Positions 34,997-62,310 of a DNA stretch of 64,000 nt are shown in pieces. Location: the NCBI RefSeq assembly GCF_053078305.1, contig NZ_CP166879.1; one strand, written 5' to 3'. The notes below the pieces were generated by a model. The model searched no databases and was not told where the DNA came from. It saw only the letters and a program-made list of their open reading frames with translations. Position numbers and translations under genes: made by a program. How positions within the stretch are numbered: position 1 is the first letter of the stretch; each line of letters starts with the position of its first letter.

Positions 34997-35422
34997 ATGG
35001 AACAGAAAATATTATCCTCAGAACCCCGCAGATCATTTTCAAATGAGTTTAAACTTCAAATGGTTAAACTGGCTTCACAACCAGGAGCCTCTGTTGCCCG
35101 TATTGCCCGGGAACACGATATCAATGATAACCTCCTGTTCAAATGGCTCAGGCTCTGGCAGAACGAAGGGCGTATATCGCGGCGTCTTCCGGTAACAACC
35201 TCTTCTGGCGCTGGCGTTGAATTATTACCTGTTGAGATAACGCCTGATGAGCAGAAAGAGCCTGTGGCGGCTCTTACTCCGCTTTTATCCACTCCTTCAC
35301 AAAGCACAGTCAGTGCCAGTTCCTGTAAAGTTGAGTTCCGCCACGGTAACATGACGCTGGAAAATCCTTCACCAGAGCTGCTCACGGTGTTGATCCGTGA
35401 ACTGACCGGGAGGGGACGATGA
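34997..35422 (+). CDS. tnpA: IS66 family accessory protein TnpA (orf1)
   Basis: 141-aa ORF with HTH-like N-terminus. Confidence 0.85.
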   Translation: MEQKILSSEPRRSFSNEFKLQMVKLASQPGASVARIAREHDINDNLLFKWLRLWQNEGRISRRLPVTTSSGAGVELLPVEITPDEQKEPVAALTPLLSTPSQSTVSASSCKVEFRHGNMTLENPSPELLTVLIRELTGRGR

Positions 35423-35769
35423 TCTCGCTCCCATCAGGCACTCGAATCTGGCTGGTTGCCGGCGTTACTGATATGCGTAAATCCTTCAACGGTCTGGGAG
35501 AACAGGTACAACATGTGCTGGATGAGAACCCCTTCTCCGGTCACCTGTTTATCTTTCGCGGCCGACGGGGTGACACGATTAAAATTCTGTGGGCTGATGC
35601 TGATGGTCTGTGCCTGTTCACCAAACGTCTGGAGGAAGGCCAGTTTATCTGGCCTGCGGTGCGTGACGGTAAGGTATCCATTACCCGCTCGCAGCTGGCA
35701 ATGCTCCTCGATAAACTGGACTGGCGTCAGCCCAAAACATCCCGCCTTAATGCACTGACAATGTTGTAA
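35419..35769 (+). CDS. tnpB: IS66 family protein TnpB (orf2)
   Basis: 116-aa ORF MISLPSGTRIWLVAGVTDMRKSFNGL...; 4-bp overlap with orf1. Confidence 0.9.
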   Translation: MISLPSGTRIWLVAGVTDMRKSFNGLGEQVQHVLDENPFSGHLFIFRGRRGDTIKILWADADGLCLFTKRLEEGQFIWPAVRDGKVSITRSQLAMLLDKLDWRQPKTSRLNALTML

Positions 35770-35799
35770 AAATGTCATGGCCGGATTATAAAAACGGTC

Positions 35800-37413
35800 A
35801 TGAGTCGGAAATACCTCATTCGTATCACTGAGCTGGAAAGGCTGCTCTCTGAGCAGGCTGAAGCCCTCCGTCAGAAAGATCAGCAACTGAGTCTGGTTGA
35901 AGAGACGGAGGCCTTCCTGCGCTCTGCACTGGCACGTGCCGAGGAAAAGATCGAAGAGGAGGAGCGGGAAATAGAACATCTGAGGGCCCAGATAGAAAAA
36001 CTGCGCCGGATGTTGTTCGGTACCCGTTCTGAAAAACTGCAGCGTGAGGTTGAACAGGCTGAGGCCCAACTGAAACAACGCGAACAGGAAAGCGATCGTT
36101 ACAGTGGGCGTGAGGATGACCCGCAGGTTCCCCGCCAGTTGCGACAGTCACGTCATCGTCGTCCGTTACCGGCACATCTTCCCCGTGAAATACACCGTCT
36201 GGAGCCTGAAGAAAGTTGTTGCCCGGAGTGTGGCAGTGAGCTGGATTATCTGGGGGAAGTCAGTGCTGAGCAGCTGGAACTGGTGAGTAGCGCCCTGAAA
36301 GTGATCCGCACTGTTCGGGTAAAAAAAGCCTGTACAAAATGTGACTGTATAGTTGAAGCGCCAGCGCCGTCCCGCCCGATAGAGCGCGGCATCGCGGGCT
36401 CCGGATTACTTGCCCGCGTGTTAACGGGAAAATACTGCGAACACCTGCCACTGTATCGTCAGAGTGAAATCTTTGCCCGCCAGGGCATCGAACTGAGCCG
36501 GGCATTACTCTCCAACTGGGTTGACGCATGTTGTCAGTTAATGACTCTGCTGAATGATACCCTGTACCGTTACGTGATGAACACCCGCAAGGTTCACACT
36601 GACGACACACCAGTAAAAGTGCTGGCAGCGGGCAGAAAAAAGGCAAAAACAGGACGCATCTGGACGTATGTCCGGGATGACCGGAATGCGGGCTCATCAG
36701 AGCCACCGGCGGTCTGGTTCGCCTACTCACCAGACAGGCAGGGAAAACATCCGGTACAACACCTTCGTCCCTTCCGGGGTATCCTGCAGGCGGATGCGTT
36801 CAGCGGTTACGATCGGCTGTTCAGTGCAGAACGTGAAGGTGGTGCACTGACAGAAGTTGCGTGCTGGGCCCATGCCCGGCGAAAAATCCACGATGTATAC
36901 ATCAGCAGCAAAAGTGCGACGGCAGAAGAAGCCCTGAAGCGAATCAGTGAACTGTACGCCATCGAGGATGAAATACGGGGATTACCGGAGTCAGAGCGTC
37001 TTGCCGTCAGGCAGCAGCGAAGCAAAGTGTTACTGACGTCACTGCATGAATGGATGGTGGAGAAGAATGGTACGCTGTCGAAAAAATCCAGACTGGGCGA
37101 AGCGTTCAGCTATGTACTGAATCAGTGGGATGCCCTCTGTTATTACAGTGATGACGGTCTGGCGGAGGCGGATAATAATGCTGCGGAAAGAGCGCTTCGT
37201 GCAGTCTGTCTCGGAAAGAAAAACTTTATGTTCTTTGGCAGCGATCACGGCGGCGAGCGTGGAGCACTGTTGTACGGGCTGATCGGCACCTGCCGTCTGA
37301 ACGGTATCGATCCGGAAGCGTATCTGCGCCATATCCTGAGCGTACTGCCAGAATGGCCTTCCAACCGAGTTGATGAACTCCTGCCATGGAACGTAGTACT
37401 CACCAATAAATAA
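35800..37413 (+). CDS. tnpC: IS66 family transposase TnpC (orf3)
   Basis: 537-aa ORF with leucine-zipper N-terminus, CxxC zinc motifs and DDE-type core. Confidence 0.9.
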   Translation: MSRKYLIRITELERLLSEQAEALRQKDQQLSLVEETEAFLRSALARAEEKIEEEEREIEHLRAQIEKLRRMLFGTRSEKLQREVEQAEAQLKQREQESDRYSGREDDPQVPRQLRQSRHRRPLPAHLPREIHRLEPEESCCPECGSELDYLGEVSAEQLELVSSALKVIRTVRVKKACTKCDCIVEAPAPSRPIERGIAGSGLLARVLTGKYCEHLPLYRQSEIFARQGIELSRALLSNWVDACCQLMTLLNDTLYRYVMNTRKVHTDDTPVKVLAAGRKKAKTGRIWTYVRDDRNAGSSEPPAVWFAYSPDRQGKHPVQHLRPFRGILQADAFSGYDRLFSAEREGGALTEVACWAHARRKIHDVYISSKSATAEEALKRISELYAIEDEIRGLPESERLAVRQQRSKVLLTSLHEWMVEKNGTLSKKSRLGEAFSYVLNQWDALCYYSDDGLAEADNNAAERALRAVCLGKKNFMFFGSDHGGERGALLYGLIGTCRLNGIDPEAYLRHILSVLPEWPSNRVDELLPWNVVLTNK

Positions 37414-37443
37414 GCGTCAATACGGTGCTCCGTTGACGCTTAC

Positions 37444-37705
37444 GAAAATTTATCCCCTGTTGCTGTAATTCATCTGTCAGCGCAACAAGGTGGCGCATAC
37501 TGCGCCCCAGCCTGTCCAGTTTCCAGACCATCAGCGTGTCACCGGGTTTTAGTTTCTTCAGTGCCCGCTTCAGTCCCGGCCGCTGCGTTGTTTTTCCGCT
37601 CATTTTATCTTCAAAAATCAGCTCACATCCTGCACATTCCAGCGCATTTCTTTGTAAACCTGTGTTCTGGTCATTTGTTGATACGCGTATATAGCCAATC
37701 AGCAT
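37444..37705 (-). pseudogene. gin: gin/pin-family DNA invertase, N-terminal fragment (catalytic Ser domain)
   Basis: MLIGYIRVSTNDQNTGLQRNALECAGCE...GDTLMVWKLDRLGRSMRHL...GINFR then IS-derived tail; ORF-track 37400..37705. Confidence 0.85.
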
Positions 37706-58378: not shown

Positions 58379-58959
58379 CAGGCTTTACCCAACAGAATCC
58401 CCTTAATACGGGACTCAAGCTGTTCACTCATCCCGTCCACGCCGCGCAGCTCGTCGGTGACGGCGTTTGCCATCTCTTCAGCAAATGCAGCCCGGATTTC
58501 TTTTTCACGCTTAATGCTGCGCTCGGCGGCACTTTCCGCACGCTGTGCTGACAGGAGGATGTCCTTAATAAGACGCATATCCACGTCGCTGTCGCTGTTC
58601 AGGGATTCGGTGGCGGCACGCAGACGGCGGTACATCAGGGCGCGGGACATCTCCAGAATCAGTGCAGTGGTTTCACCGGTCGGCTTGTCCCCCAGTTCGG
58701 CCATCATGGCTTTTGTCTGCTCGCGTAAATCACGCAGGTTACGGGCAATCAGCTCATTACGGGAGGCTTCCCGGCTGATGGCCGCCGGTGAAAGCTGCTG
58801 CTCTTCCGGCAGGCCCGCCTCACGGATCAGACGGTTGATTTCCTCGCGGATCTGGACCTGCGTCAGACGTTTTTCACGCAGCATTTCCAGCAGCGGCTTA
58901 CGGATACTGTCGGGGAGCAAATCCACCTTGCGTACACGACCACGCGTCGGCTTGTCCAT
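58378..58959 (-). CDS. terminase small subunit (Mu gp27-like)
   Basis: 193-aa ORF immediately upstream of large subunit. Confidence 0.65.
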   Translation of the reverse strand: MDKPTRGRVRKVDLLPDSIRKPLLEMLREKRLTQVQIREEINRLIREAGLPEEQQLSPAAISREASRNELIARNLRDLREQTKAMMAELGDKPTGETTALILEMSRALMYRRLRAATESLNSDSDVDMRLIKDILLSAQRAESAAERSIKREKEIRAAFAEEMANAVTDELRGVDGMSEQLESRIKGILLGKA

Positions 58960-58961
58960 CG

Positions 58962-59252
58962 TTACCCCCTTGCGCGTGGTTTCTTCACACCCGGAACACT
59001 GGCGCGGCCTTCCGCCACATCCTGCCCCCGGCCGGTCAGCTCTGCGATGAAATAACCGTTAATCAGAACACGTTTGCGCACCAGTCCCTGCTCGGCAAGC
59101 CAGGCAATGTGGGTGTGAACGGTGTCGCGGGACACGCGGTGGCCGTAATCATCCAGACAGTCCTGGAGCACGGATTCACCCAGTTCACCGTTGTAATCTG
59201 CCAGCGACCGCAGAATGACCAGACGCTGATCTTCAGTAATGAAATCACTCAT
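58962..59252 (-). CDS. Mu gp26-like small protein
   Basis: 96-aa ORF; synteny. Confidence 0.5.
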   Translation of the reverse strand: MSDFITEDQRLVILRSLADYNGELGESVLQDCLDDYGHRVSRDTVHTHIAWLAEQGLVRKRVLINGYFIAELTGRGQDVAEGRASVPGVKKPRARG

Positions 59253-59557
59253 TGCGTTTTTTTCCTTACAGCCTGCTCCAGCAGCAGTTCGTTCTGATAG
59301 GAGACAGAGCGGAGCGTGGCGTTCGTGGTTTTCAGTTCACCCCGCAGGGTCACGATTTCCACATTCAGACGGTTGACCTCGGCTTCTGTCGGCAGTGACG
59401 ACAGACGGGTTTCCACCTTCTCAACGCGGTCGGAGAGTTTTTCAAAGGCCTCGCGGGGGACAAACGTTTTGCGCATCAGCGCCATGAATATCCCGCCAGC
59501 GGTTGCCGTCGCCGAAAGGATCGGCACAACATAATCTTTAACGATGCTGACCCACAT
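59249..59557 (-). CDS. membrane-anchored coiled-coil protein (Mu gp25-like, possible lysis accessory)
   Basis: 102-aa ORF; N-terminal TM then coiled coil. Confidence 0.45.
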   Translation of the reverse strand: MWVSIVKDYVVPILSATATAGGIFMALMRKTFVPREAFEKLSDRVEKVETRLSSLPTEAEVNRLNVEIVTLRGELKTTNATLRSVSYQNELLLEQAVRKKTQ

Positions 59558-59831
59558 GACGGGCCTCCATGATGTTCTGGCAGTTCACACAACGGATGGC
59601 ATCCGGCACAGCAACAAGACGTGCGGCGGGGATCTCTCCGCCACAGTCCGCGCAGACACGTCTGCCCGGAGCATCCACTGCCCGGCGCTTACGTGTCAGC
59701 CGGTTACAAAGGGCGCGTTCTGATCCCCGCTCCATCACAGCCTGAGCACGATCTGAATCATCCATACCTTTTTCCTTACTTCGTCTTTCCTGCCGGAACA
59801 GCAGGCGTTCCGGCCATATCAGTAAATTCAT
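59538..59831 (-). CDS. TraR/DksA-family C4 zinc-finger protein
   Basis: C-terminal CADCGGEI...CVNCQ motif. Confidence 0.6.
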   Translation of the reverse strand: MNLLIWPERLLFRQERRSKEKGMDDSDRAQAVMERGSERALCNRLTRKRRAVDAPGRRVCADCGGEIPAARLVAVPDAIRCVNCQNIMEARHVGQHR

Positions 59832-60147
59832 GTTGTCGCCGCGCCTCCAGACGACGAATACTGGCCTTATCCACGTTGCAGTTCTTGATCACCGCCAGCA
59901 GTTGCAGGTTGTAAGTGACCGATGCCCCAAACGTGAACGGCTCCGGCGCAGGAGGGACCAGGCAGTCAGCCAGCCATTCAGCGGGGATCGGCACCGGCTT
60001 CACAGGCACGTATTTCACAGACGGCCCGGCGCACCCGGTCAGCCACATCATCAGGAACAGGGACAGAGGCCGCAGGCACTGCTGCCAGCGACCGGCGGAC
60101 AACGCTCTGCTGCTCCTCGCTGTGCTGAATGTTCTGTTGCTTTTCAT
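59776..60147 (-). CDS. Rz1-like o-spanin lipoprotein overlapping i-spanin in another frame
   Basis: Signal peptide ending in lipobox LTGC, Pro-rich mature region; ORF-track frame 59776..60342. Confidence 0.45.
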   Translation of the reverse strand: MKSNRTFSTARSSRALSAGRWQQCLRPLSLFLMMWLTGCAGPSVKYVPVKPVPIPAEWLADCLVPPAPEPFTFGASVTYNLQLLAVIKNCNVDKASIRRLEARRQHEFTDMAGTPAVPAGKTK

Positions 60148-60499
60148 TCGTGGCCGCCTCACTGATTTGTGAAATGAGTTGCAGGGTGTGCTGCTGATTT
60201 GCCAGCACCTGACGCGCCTCATCCCGCTCACGCACAAGCACCTGATTATTGTCTTCAAGGCGCTGCGTCTTCTGGTGCATTCCCCATATCGCGGCAACCA
60301 GTACAGCGATAGTCCCCAGCGCCGCCATGCACGCCCCGGCAATCAGGGCCGGTAAGGCGTTATTCACCGCAGCCACAGGACACCCCGTAACAGCAGTACC
60401 GCACACAGCAGCGCTATCATGAGCGGTCGCCAGAAGCGGTTCAGACTTTCGGCAAGTCGTAGCGACATAACCATTCATCCGCCGAACGGCGGGCCTCAA
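59978..60499 (-). CDS. Rz-like i-spanin (start uncertain)
   Basis: TM segment LPALIAGACMAALGTIAVLVAAIWG then coiled coil; overlaps lysozyme 3' end. Confidence 0.5.
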   Translation of the reverse strand: MRPAVRRMNGYVATTCRKSEPLLATAHDSAAVCGTAVTGCPVAAVNNALPALIAGACMAALGTIAVLVAAIWGMHQKTQRLEDNNQVLVRERDEARQVLANQQHTLQLISQISEAATNEKQQNIQHSEEQQSVVRRSLAAVPAASVPVPDDVADRVRRAVCEIRACEAGADPR

Positions 60500-60941
60500 G
60501 GCCGGGAAGTTTCACCCCCTTTGAATAAATCCAGCGGATATACTGCTTACAGGACGCGGGCATCTGCCCGGCATTGATCAGGCGCAGAAGCGTGGAGTTG
60601 CGAAAGTTCGTTTCACCGGCCCAGAAGATCCACGAAGCCAGCGCCACCGTCTGACCACGGGTAAGCGGCACCTGAACACGCCGATCAATGGCCGCAAAGG
60701 CCCATTTCATGTCCTTTTCCAGTAGTTCCAGGCATTCTTCATCTGTCAGGGTCATACCCGGTTTCACATCCGGGCCGGTATGGCCGTAACAGATGGTGGG
60801 TGTACCGGTGGGATCGATATACGTGGAGTTTTCTTTCCCTTCCCAGTAACCGGTGTAATGCGTGGCAATCGTGAACGTCCCGGCACCGGCCAGAACAAGG
60901 GCAATCAGCTTTTTACGCAGTGGTGCGGGGAGTTTTGGCAT
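60441..60941 (-). CDS. SAR-type endolysin (lysozyme family)
   Basis: N-terminal signal-anchor LIALVLAGAGTFTIA; YWEGKENSTYIDPTGTPTICYGHT lysozyme catalytic motif. Confidence 0.75.
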   Translation of the reverse strand: MPKLPAPLRKKLIALVLAGAGTFTIATHYTGYWEGKENSTYIDPTGTPTICYGHTGPDVKPGMTLTDEECLELLEKDMKWAFAAIDRRVQVPLTRGQTVALASWIFWAGETNFRNSTLLRLINAGQMPASCKQYIRWIYSKGVKLPGLEARRSADEWLCRYDLPKV

Positions 60942-61012
60942 TGTTACGCTGTCTCATGATGTTCTCTGAGTCAGCGTAACGGTGAAGGAGAGGCGGCAGG
61001 CTTTGCGGAATA

Positions 61013-61438
61013 TCAGAAAAGTGGCGGTTGCGTTCTTGCCAGATGCAGACGGCGCTGTTCACGTATGACGGTATAAATCTGGGTTTCTGACATCCGGTAA
61101 TGGCGGCGAAGGGATTCAATCTTCTCGCCCCGGTCCCAGCGCGAAAATATCTCATTGTTTCGCAGCTCGGCAAAGAGAGATTCCCCGACCGGCAGGTAAT
61201 AACCCCGTCCGCCCATATAGGCTGCCTGAGCCGCAGCCACCTTGCGTGCCAGTTTACCGGCCAGTACCGGCTCAATCCCCTGACGCTGAAGTTCTGCGCC
61301 GGTGACTTCAACCAGTTCTGACAGGGTCCGCGGCCAGTTCTTTTTGAGAACATCATCAGGGATGTCATCAAGGCGGTCGATAAGGGCGTGCAGTTGCTCA
61401 CTGTCACCACCAAACATGCTCATCTGAGTTTCTGCCAT
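61013..61438 (-). CDS. Mor/C-family transcription activator (middle/late operon regulator)
   Basis: 141-aa ORF with C-terminal HTH; located between early genes and lysis genes. Confidence 0.8.
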   Translation of the reverse strand: MAETQMSMFGGDSEQLHALIDRLDDIPDDVLKKNWPRTLSELVEVTGAELQRQGIEPVLAGKLARKVAAAQAAYMGGRGYYLPVGESLFAELRNNEIFSRWDRGEKIESLRRHYRMSETQIYTVIREQRRLHLARTQPPLF

Positions 61439-61507: not shown

Positions 61508-62017
61508 TTAACGGGGAAGTGATTTTTCATACTGCCTGCAAACGGCGTCATACCCCATCAGCGTGCGTTCGGGCATTCCCATCGCGGCCAGCATTTTGCG
61601 GCGGTGCCATCGCTTGAGACGCTCCAGCACATCTGAGGCCAGGGCGGGGTGTTGCTCCAGCCACTGCCAGTTTGCCACACCTTCGCCGCCGTTCTGCGCG
61701 GCCGTCTGCGATTTCACCCAGCGGTTAAGAGCGGTTTCCGCACCATCAGAGATAAAGCCCTGCCGGTGCATCACTTTCCAGATGGCGCGAATTCTGGCGG
61801 TCACCGTACCCGGTTTTAAGGCCCGGTTAACCGGTTTCTGACGCACTTTAAAACCGCGTTTTTTGAAAACATCCAGCACGCGGGATAACTCACCGGGTGA
61901 CATATCCCGGCAACTGGTTTTGCCGGTGGCTGCCAGTAGTACGAATGTGTAGGTCTCATCATCCAGGGCAAGCTCGCGCTTTGCCACATGAATGGCGGAT
62001 ATCAGTTTTCCTCTCAT
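61508..62017 (-). CDS. Mu gp16 (GemA)-like protein
   Basis: 169-aa ORF immediately upstream of Mor-like gene. Confidence 0.55.
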   Translation of the reverse strand: MRGKLISAIHVAKRELALDDETYTFVLLAATGKTSCRDMSPGELSRVLDVFKKRGFKVRQKPVNRALKPGTVTARIRAIWKVMHRQGFISDGAETALNRWVKSQTAAQNGGEGVANWQWLEQHPALASDVLERLKRWHRRKMLAAMGMPERTLMGYDAVCRQYEKSLPR

Positions 62018-62310
62018 ACCGTATTTACCTTTTTACGGACATGGAAAGCCTTTTCTGCCTCATCCCACCGGGCATGGTGTGTTGGCGGAATAATCATTAT
62101 GTGCCAGCCATCTCTGGTTGTTATCCGGCAGAAAAATTCACCGCTATATAACACAATGGCCTGCTGAATGAGCGCATCAGCCGCCCGTTCAACCGGATGT
62201 CTTTTATCAAAAAAGCAGATGATTTTTCGACATAACCACCGGGTAATAACAAATGCGCCGAAAAAGGATGTGATATATAAGCACCAGAACAACAGAGAAC
62301 TATTGTCCAT
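62014..62310 (-). CDS. hypothetical membrane protein (prophage early region)
   Basis: 98-aa ORF with N-terminal TM. Confidence 0.4.
   Translation of the reverse strand: MDNSSLLFWCLYITSFFGAFVITRWLCRKIICFFDKRHPVERAADALIQQAIVLYSGEFFCRITTRDGWHIMIIPPTHHARWDEAEKAFHVRKKVNTV

Follow-up and report, generated by a model that had tools for sequence, protein, structure and literature searches.

A probable Mu-type lysis module without a holin, and a small conserved gene candidate inside it, in a Mu-like prophage of Escherichia coli

Phage Mu lyses its host with the signal-anchor-release (SAR) endolysin gp22 and the spanins gp23 and gp23.1, and has no holin; the release of gp22 requires gp25, a DUF2730 protein called the releasin, and this dependence is due to basic residues that flank the SAR domain on its cytoplasmic side (Chamblee et al., 2022, mBio, PMC9239132). 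The same study found that the pinholin S21-68 acts on gp22, that is, a SAR endolysin is freed by depolarization, that DUF2730 proteins accompany non-SAR endolysins as well, that confirmed holins are late genes, and that the Mu membrane proteins gp19 and gp20, encoded outside the late operon, are irrelevant to lysis (PMC9239132). Here we compare with this system the block 59776–60941 (minus strand) of a 64,000-nt stretch of contig NZ_CP166879.1, assembly GCF_053078305.1 (further, the window). This block is very probably the lysis module that heads the late operon of a Mu-like E. coli prophage and works as in phage Mu. The Mu-type holin-less lysis design is already known, and the cassette adds little to it in itself; what is new here is that it contains a conserved candidate gene for a small membrane peptide, which has almost always escaped annotation. 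The evidence obtained is homology, gene order, sequence features and purifying selection; activities, topology and releasin dependence we infer from Mu and phage 21.

In the list of open reading frames (ORFs), the limits of the block coincide exactly with the stop of the outer-membrane spanin (o-spanin) gene and the start of the lysozyme gene. The gene order is that of Mu, namely C, lys, inner-membrane spanin (i-spanin), o-spanin, a gene in the gp24 position, gp25, gp26, and the small and large terminase genes TerS and TerL. The original prediction had pointed to Mu lys and gp23/gp23.1 for comparison, and homologues of gp22, gp23 and gp23.1 are indeed found here in the same order. Identity to the Mu proteins is 39% for the lysozyme (E 1e-32), 28% for the i-spanin (E 3e-7), 42% for the o-spanin (E 3e-15), about 34–35% for the gp25 homologue (E 5e-18), 63% for gp26, and 57% for gp27, the small terminase. 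Homologues of gp26, gp27 and the large terminase lie downstream of the DUF2730 gene, PF11985 being among the family matches, and the further structural genes (terminase, portal, etc.) are long open frames. The source DNA shares 99% identity with the "inserted Mu-like phage" of two Shiga toxin (Stx) phage records, and the cassette is present in 230 out of 5426 complete E. coli genomes. As the early region of a near-identical copy encodes a Mu-type transposase, an AAA ATPase at the B position and Gam, the element is a transposable Mu-like prophage. Neither a sigma-70-like promoter nor a convincing terminator was found inside the 58900–61000 region, and hence the lysis genes in it are probably co-transcribed.

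The first gene of the block (60441–60941, minus strand) encodes a 166-aa GH24 lysozyme-type endolysin (PF00959, E 6e-37; PHROG 7 endolysin, E 8e-51) with an intact catalytic triad, E34-X8-D43-X5-T49, spaced as E37/D46/T52 in gp22. Both proteins thus share the GH24 arrangement E-X8-D-X5-T and an N-terminal Ala/Gly-rich anchor that follows a basic cluster. Here the N-terminus reads MPKLPAPLRKK, an 11-residue tail with four basic residues (K3, R9, K10, K11) compared to two in the cytoplasmic tail of the phage 21 endolysin R21, and continues with LIALVLAGAGTFTIAT, the SAR-type hydrophobic core at residues 12–27 (60861–60908, minus strand), directly preceded by R9-K10-K11. The core is 15–16 residues long, with Ala, Gly or Thr in nine of 16 positions, and it is weakly hydrophobic: its 19-residue Kyte-Doolittle maximum (KD19) is 1.39, compared to 2.37 for the transmembrane domain (TMD) of the i-spanin, and the summed Hessa insertion free energy (dG) over 19 residues is +3.3 kcal/mol, compared to –1.0 for the i-spanin anchor. 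The N-terminal segment of gp22 is similarly weak.

The alignment with gp22 runs through the SAR segment, and so does that with R21, which together with RrrD (4ZPU) is the closest relative of solved structure (PDB 3HDE, E 1e-24): lysozyme residues 5–161 are aligned to residues 2–162 of the 3HDE chain, covering P-x-LRK and the Ala/Gly-rich segment. In relatives with 82–84% overall identity, LRKKL[IV]ALVLAGAGT is kept. The protein therefore combines a catalytic domain, a weak Ala/Gly/Thr-rich N-terminal TMD after basic residues, and homology through this segment, which are the sequence criteria for SAR endolysins, and the SAR-type N-terminal segment claimed in the original prediction is present with these features. 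This supports the prediction of a SAR-type endolysin, which would be tethered uncleaved and later released. The SAR segment has no Cys, and so presumably the enzyme is regulated in the R21 manner and not by disulfide caging as in P1 Lyz.

The same N-terminus has the layout of an ordinary cleavable Sec signal peptide, with RKK as the n-region, an h-region of 10–15 residues and small residues at –3/–1 (T24-I25-A26 | T27); the core is short, and its Hessa dG is favorable only with a 15-residue window. If so, the enzyme would be secreted in a soluble form and be under some other control. We consider this very unlikely, as R21, which aligns with the lysozyme N-terminus and is not cleaved, has a comparable A-I-A | S motif; the segment is kept at the level of sequence, a releasin homologue is retained downstream of the lysozyme gene, and the syntenic homologue gp22 is a SAR endolysin by experiment (PMC9239132).

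The predicted SAR endolysin is accompanied by two spanin genes in different frames. The i-spanin (Rz-like, 132 aa; 59978–60376, minus strand; PHROG 214 Rz-like spanin, E 3e-32; no Pfam family above the threshold) shares the frame of the longest ORF, 59978–60499. It has an N-terminal TMD at about residues 8–31, with the KD19 and dG values given above obtained for residues 12–30, and Cys residues 120 and 125 at the C-terminus; an N-in/C-out topology with a helical periplasmic domain is predicted from these features. The o-spanin (Rz1/LysC-like outer-membrane lipoprotein, 123-aa precursor; 59776–60147, minus strand; PF23793 LysC, E 7e-17; PHROG 3001 and 456, Rz-like spanin) starts with ATG 60147, preceded by GAGG 9 nt upstream, and stops at 59776. 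Its L-T-G-C lipobox occupies residues 36–39 (60031–60042, minus strand); the PROSITE PS51257 pattern is matched by SLFLMMWLTGC (residues 29–39), with Cys39 as the predicted lipidation site and Ala, not Asp, at +2. The mature part would have 85 aa, including 11 Pro, nine of them in the first 35 residues; the Mu o-spanin likewise has LTGC and an 85-aa mature form, with 10 Pro. The start codon with GAGG and the lipobox are kept in the E. coli, Citrobacter and Edwardsiella copies, and the 123-aa form is present in the protein collection.

The o-spanin gene begins 170 nt before the end of the i-spanin gene and extends 202 nt past its stop. Both features resemble Mu, where the overlap is 140 nt and the extension is also 202 nt. 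In P2 LysB/LysC and lambda Rz/Rz1, too, a type II protein of the inner membrane is paired with a Pro-rich lipoprotein of the outer membrane, and the same DNA encodes both in different frames; Rz1, unlike the o-spanin here, lies wholly inside Rz. By its sequence features the pair is a two-component spanin of the "overlapped" class, presumably the architecture of P2 lysB/lysC. The original prediction, an Rz-like ORF overlapping a second frame with an LTGC Pro-rich lipoprotein, is thereby borne out, with an overlapped pair as in Mu gp23/gp23.1.

Selection was analyzed in 23 unique E. coli variants of the cassette by the ratio of nonsynonymous to synonymous polymorphism (pN/pS). Where the two genes do not overlap, the true frames yield 0.28 (i-spanin) and 0.35 (o-spanin), compared to 1.16–1.74 in the wrong frames; inside the overlap it is 0.29 in the i-spanin frame, 0.97 in the o-spanin frame and 3.79 in the third frame. 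As both frames are under purifying selection outside the overlap, the two-frame spanin pair is not due to chance.

The start of the i-spanin, judging by comparison of homologs, is GTG 60376 and not the start of the longest ORF; in diverged relatives, whose lys is 82–84% identical, ATG is found at this position (MAGLKDELP...). Three other starts were considered and rejected. ATG 60478 (166 aa) is a by-product of the Asp-Glu codons of lys and is missing in most of the diverged group (L032–L038); upstream of 60376, the frame of GTG 60406 (142 aa, chosen by PGAP) has pN/pS 2.1; and the codon at GTG 60367 is GTA in the variant L004.

In the RefSeq/PGAP annotation of the copies L002–L007, the i-spanin starts at three different codons among genomes, yielding 116, 132 or 142 aa, and is sometimes named "endopeptidase"; lysC starts at GTG 60018, past the lipobox, with an 80-aa product lacking the signal peptide. 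We rejected the latter start, as it would delete both the signal peptide and the lipobox, which are conserved. NCBIfam yields nothing for the spanins, for the DUF2730 protein or for the small ORF described below. The PGAP annotation of the cassette is systematically off, and automated surveys will therefore overlook the spanin lipoprotein signal.

To assess the holin question, we calculated hydropathy for all ORFs in the 37000–64000 region and considered the non-nested minus-strand late ORFs. In these, hydrophobic segments are limited to lys, the small ORF, the two spanins and the DUF2730 protein; the hydropathy census and family searches yielded no multi-TMD ORF and no recognized holin class or family in the late operon. 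The absence of an obvious canonical holin nearby, noted in the original prediction, thus extends to holin-like multi-TMD ORFs of the whole late operon. Here again the prophage resembles Mu, whose late operon likewise lacks a holin-like gene, and differs from phage 21, where R21 (PDB 3HDE/3HDF) is released by the two-TMD pinholin S21-68: in place of such a pinholin gene, the DUF2730 protein is found.

The latter (102 aa; 59249–59557, minus strand) is a homologue of the Mu releasin gp25, its residues 6–97 matching positions 3–101 out of 102 of the PF10805 profile (E 7e-20). It has a TMD at residues 10–28 (KD19 1.80), R29-K30 at the membrane/cytoplasm junction, which align with R26-R27 of gp25, and a 74-aa cytoplasmic helical domain. 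Its gene is the fifth 3' of lys, counting the small ORF, and lies about 220 nt downstream of 59776; the context is that of a transposable phage, with GemA, a Mor-family protein, gp27 and other Mu-type neighbors, and the endolysin partner is of the SAR type. With a releasin homologue just outside the 59776–60941 block, no hidden holin is necessary to explain the cassette, and by analogy with Mu the DUF2730 protein may be a functional releasin for this lysozyme. Neither this homologue nor the small ORF nor the GTG 60376 start had been part of the original prediction.

Taken together with the Mu data, lysis would proceed as follows. A Mor/C-family activator would switch on the late promoter; the lysozyme would be exported by Sec and kept inactive by its SAR segment, tethered to the inner membrane, with the strongly basic cytoplasmic tail (K3, R9, K10, K11) retaining the segment in the bilayer. 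Instead of a holin, the membrane-tethered cytoplasmic DUF2730 protein would let the SAR segment exit the membrane, upon which the freed lysozyme would refold in the way of R21 and degrade the cell wall. Finally, the i-spanin, anchored in the inner membrane and with a coiled coil in the periplasm, and the o-spanin, to which it would by then be linked across the periplasm, would fuse the two membranes and finish lysis.

Several observations weigh against this interpretation. In the lysozyme, these are the possible signal-peptidase site T-I-A/T within the SAR segment, the presence of only two Gly in this segment compared to six Gly in seven positions in Mu, and the position of the basic cluster: the critical K6/K7 of gp22 align with A6/P7, and the cluster is found at residues 9–11 instead, so that releasin dependence of the enzyme is an extrapolation. 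In its cytoplasmic domain, the DUF2730 protein has a net basic composition (11 acidic and 14 basic residues), whereas gp25 is net acidic there (12 acidic and 11 basic). The o-spanin signal peptide is atypical if the start is ATG 60147, having an n-region of 27 aa and Cys at position 39, and is ten residues longer than in Mu; the PROSITE lipobox profile expects Cys at positions 15–35, and Cys39 falls outside this range. An alternative start, TTG (Leu16), would place the Cys at 24 and is indistinguishable from ATG 60147; we retain the latter, as ATG and GAGG are conserved. Finally, the right end of the prophage, with a gin-like invertase, appears from the sequence to be disrupted, and with this damage the element may be no longer inducible.

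An IS66-family element at 34997–37413, with three ORFs (HTH_Tnp_1, TnpB_IS66 and DDE_Tnp_IS66), adjoins the resolvase/invertase gene at 37400–37705, which is reduced to 101 aa of the N-terminal domain. Moreover, some copies of the cassette from IMG/VR carry single-base frameshifts, which may be due to decay or to assembly errors: in the o-spanin in L011, a run of three loci, and at the 3' end of lys in L029, one locus. Both observations fit a relic of a defective prophage that has lost its lysis function. This seems improbable to us, given that every cassette ORF of the window is intact, pN/pS in the true frames of the 23 variants is about 0.3, the cassette is kept across E. coli, Citrobacter and Edwardsiella, and the downstream structural genes remain long open frames.

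The reading of the block as a Mu-type module leaves one gene of the cassette without a Mu counterpart. The stop of lys and the start of the i-spanin are separated here by 64 nt, whereas in Mu these genes overlap by 17 nt, and the whole gap is filled by a conserved ORF of 34–36 codons (60364–60474, minus strand; 34 aa from Met 60468 or 36 aa from ATG 60474) that begins within lys, 27–33 nt from its 3' end, and extends 13 nt into the i-spanin gene. The encoded peptide, M(VM)SLRLAESLNRFWRPLMIALLCAVLLLRGVLWLR, has one hydrophobic stretch, with no more than 12 hydrophobic residues in a row, flanked by two Arg. The ORF, with 36 codons, is open in all the non-frameshifted variants that were compared from E. 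coli, Citrobacter braakii and IMG/VR contigs, and a prophage of Edwardsiella anguillarum, whose lys is 67% identical, has a homologue of 37 codons, MYVRLAESRLSQYWRVVTLGLLVFVLVLRGVLWLG. Distant relatives (lys 37–44% identical, types of Mu proper included) have no such ORF, and their i-spanin begins at the lys stop.

Selection on this ORF was analyzed in the 20 codons not shared with any other gene, which constitute the entire sample. There pN/pS is 0.25 in its own frame compared to 2.08 and 1.43 in the other frames, the same selection signature as in the spanin genes; with the diverged group added, the value in its own frame is 0.47. The third codon position takes 19 of the 36 minimal substitutions (binomial P = 0.012). 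Overlap with lys constrains the first 11 codons of the ORF, and approximately the last eight are constrained by the ribosome-binding site and start of the i-spanin.

A profile search in 1.84 billion representative proteins yielded a single true match, P0031, which consists of 34 aa from the conserved Met (E 4e-14); it was called by an independent gene caller and is flanked, on a syntenic contig, by a lysozyme of 166 aa and an i-spanin of 126 aa. Exact copies of the 34-aa and 36-aa window sequences were not found in a collection of 15 billion proteins, no annotation of the ORF was seen in the PGAP records examined, and it has no match in Pfam, PHROG or NCBIfam. When tblastn was run against phage records, only the two Stx-phage records carrying the same Mu-like insert were found. 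Comparison with Mu gp19 and gp20 showed no similarity. A frameshift fusion of lys with the small ORF was set aside, as the conserved Met with an upstream GGA motif provides a simpler reading. On balance, the small ORF is probably a real gene.

A precedent for a small single-TMD lysis protein beyond the set of holin, endolysin and spanins is Lcc6 of the Shewanella phage LambdaSo, a 65-aa protein with one TMD that is needed for lysis by a pinholin and a SAR endolysin (bioRxiv 10.1101/2024.01.23.576932). Lcc6 has no sequence similarity to the small ORF and double its length; its gene lies at a distance from the lysis genes, and it has a pinholin partner. The small ORF is probably an extra, uncharacterised component of this clade, and a role in the timing of lysis would be a guess from its position and from Lcc6. 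More specifically, the peptide encoded at 60364–60474 could be an unrecognized lysis component that times the exit of the SAR endolysin, acting either as a releasin modulator or as a minimal membrane-depolarizing trigger; we regard this as speculative and rather doubtful. If true, a lysis mechanism regarded as holin-free would gain a means of timing. The gene is a testable candidate for an additional lysis factor.

A second membrane protein of interest is encoded by an early gene at 62014–62310 (minus strand), just upstream of gemA: it has 98 aa, a single N-terminal TMD (LLFWCLYITSFFGAFVI) and no Pfam or NCBIfam match. The early region of a related copy encodes one more TM protein of 61 aa. 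We judged such early-region proteins unlikely to be holins, as their genes are early and each has one TMD; a comparable idea has been disproved for Mu gp19 and gp20.

Still, one could suppose that the timing of lysis is set by a holin-like trigger, the small peptide or the 98-aa protein depolarizing or permeabilizing the membrane, with DUF2730 having an auxiliary or some other role. That the small ORF lies inside the cassette and is under purifying selection agrees with this, and so do the release of SAR endolysins by depolarization, exemplified by S21-68 acting on gp22, the requirement for the single-TMD Lcc6 in SAR-endolysin lysis by LambdaSo, and the occurrence of DUF2730 proteins next to non-SAR endolysins. 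However, neither candidate resembles a known holin class, each having one short hydrophobic stretch and no family match, and in the small ORF the hydrophobic run comprises just 12 residues between two Arg. Further, the 98-aa protein belongs to the early region, while confirmed holins are late, and Mu, the closest studied relative, lyses without a holin, gp19 and gp20 being irrelevant. We therefore find a holin-like trigger unlikely, and retain release by the DUF2730 protein as the preferred reading.

For studies of releasins, the lysozyme and the DUF2730 protein form a natural variant pair, with RKK at positions 9–11, a Gly-poor SAR segment and a net basic cytoplasmic domain of DUF2730; the latter bears on the acidic-microenvironment model suggested for gp25.

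Upstream of the lysis genes, the Mor/C-family transcription activator (61013–61438, minus strand; Pfam Mor PF08765, E 3e-32; PHROG 532 late transcriptional activator, E 3e-45) is 40% identical to Mu C and 27% identical to Mu Mor; it likely is the late activator, and its gene lies directly upstream of the lysis operon. When the sequence upstream of lys was aligned with that around Plys of Mu, no recognizable shared activator site was seen. Unlike Mu, there is a single Mor/C-family gene, and gp18–gp20 are absent; gemA (61508–62017, minus strand) is separated from the activator gene by a terminator-like hairpin (61503–61480, minus strand). With one activator following gemA and the hairpin, and with no gp18–gp20, the early-middle-late cascade must be wired differently from that of Mu.

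One more difference from Mu is observed downstream of the o-spanin, where gp24 is replaced by a clear TraR/DksA-type C4 zinc-finger protein of 75 aa (59538–59765, minus strand; PF01258, E 8e-12; TIGR02419 TraR family, E 5e-22). This protein is not known to act in lysis. Its match to gp24 is weak (E 0.04) and limited to the Cys motif, suggesting that gp24 is a degenerate member of the TraR/DksA family. In three of the diverged copies (L032, L033, L038), an extra gene, absent in the window, separates the o-spanin from the TraR-like gene, at relative positions of approximately 700–1000 nt after the 3' end of lys; its product (MTEPT...LDFEVLRGILAAIGYDIPRDRFESAVFLATSDTKAHG) has about 95–110 aa.

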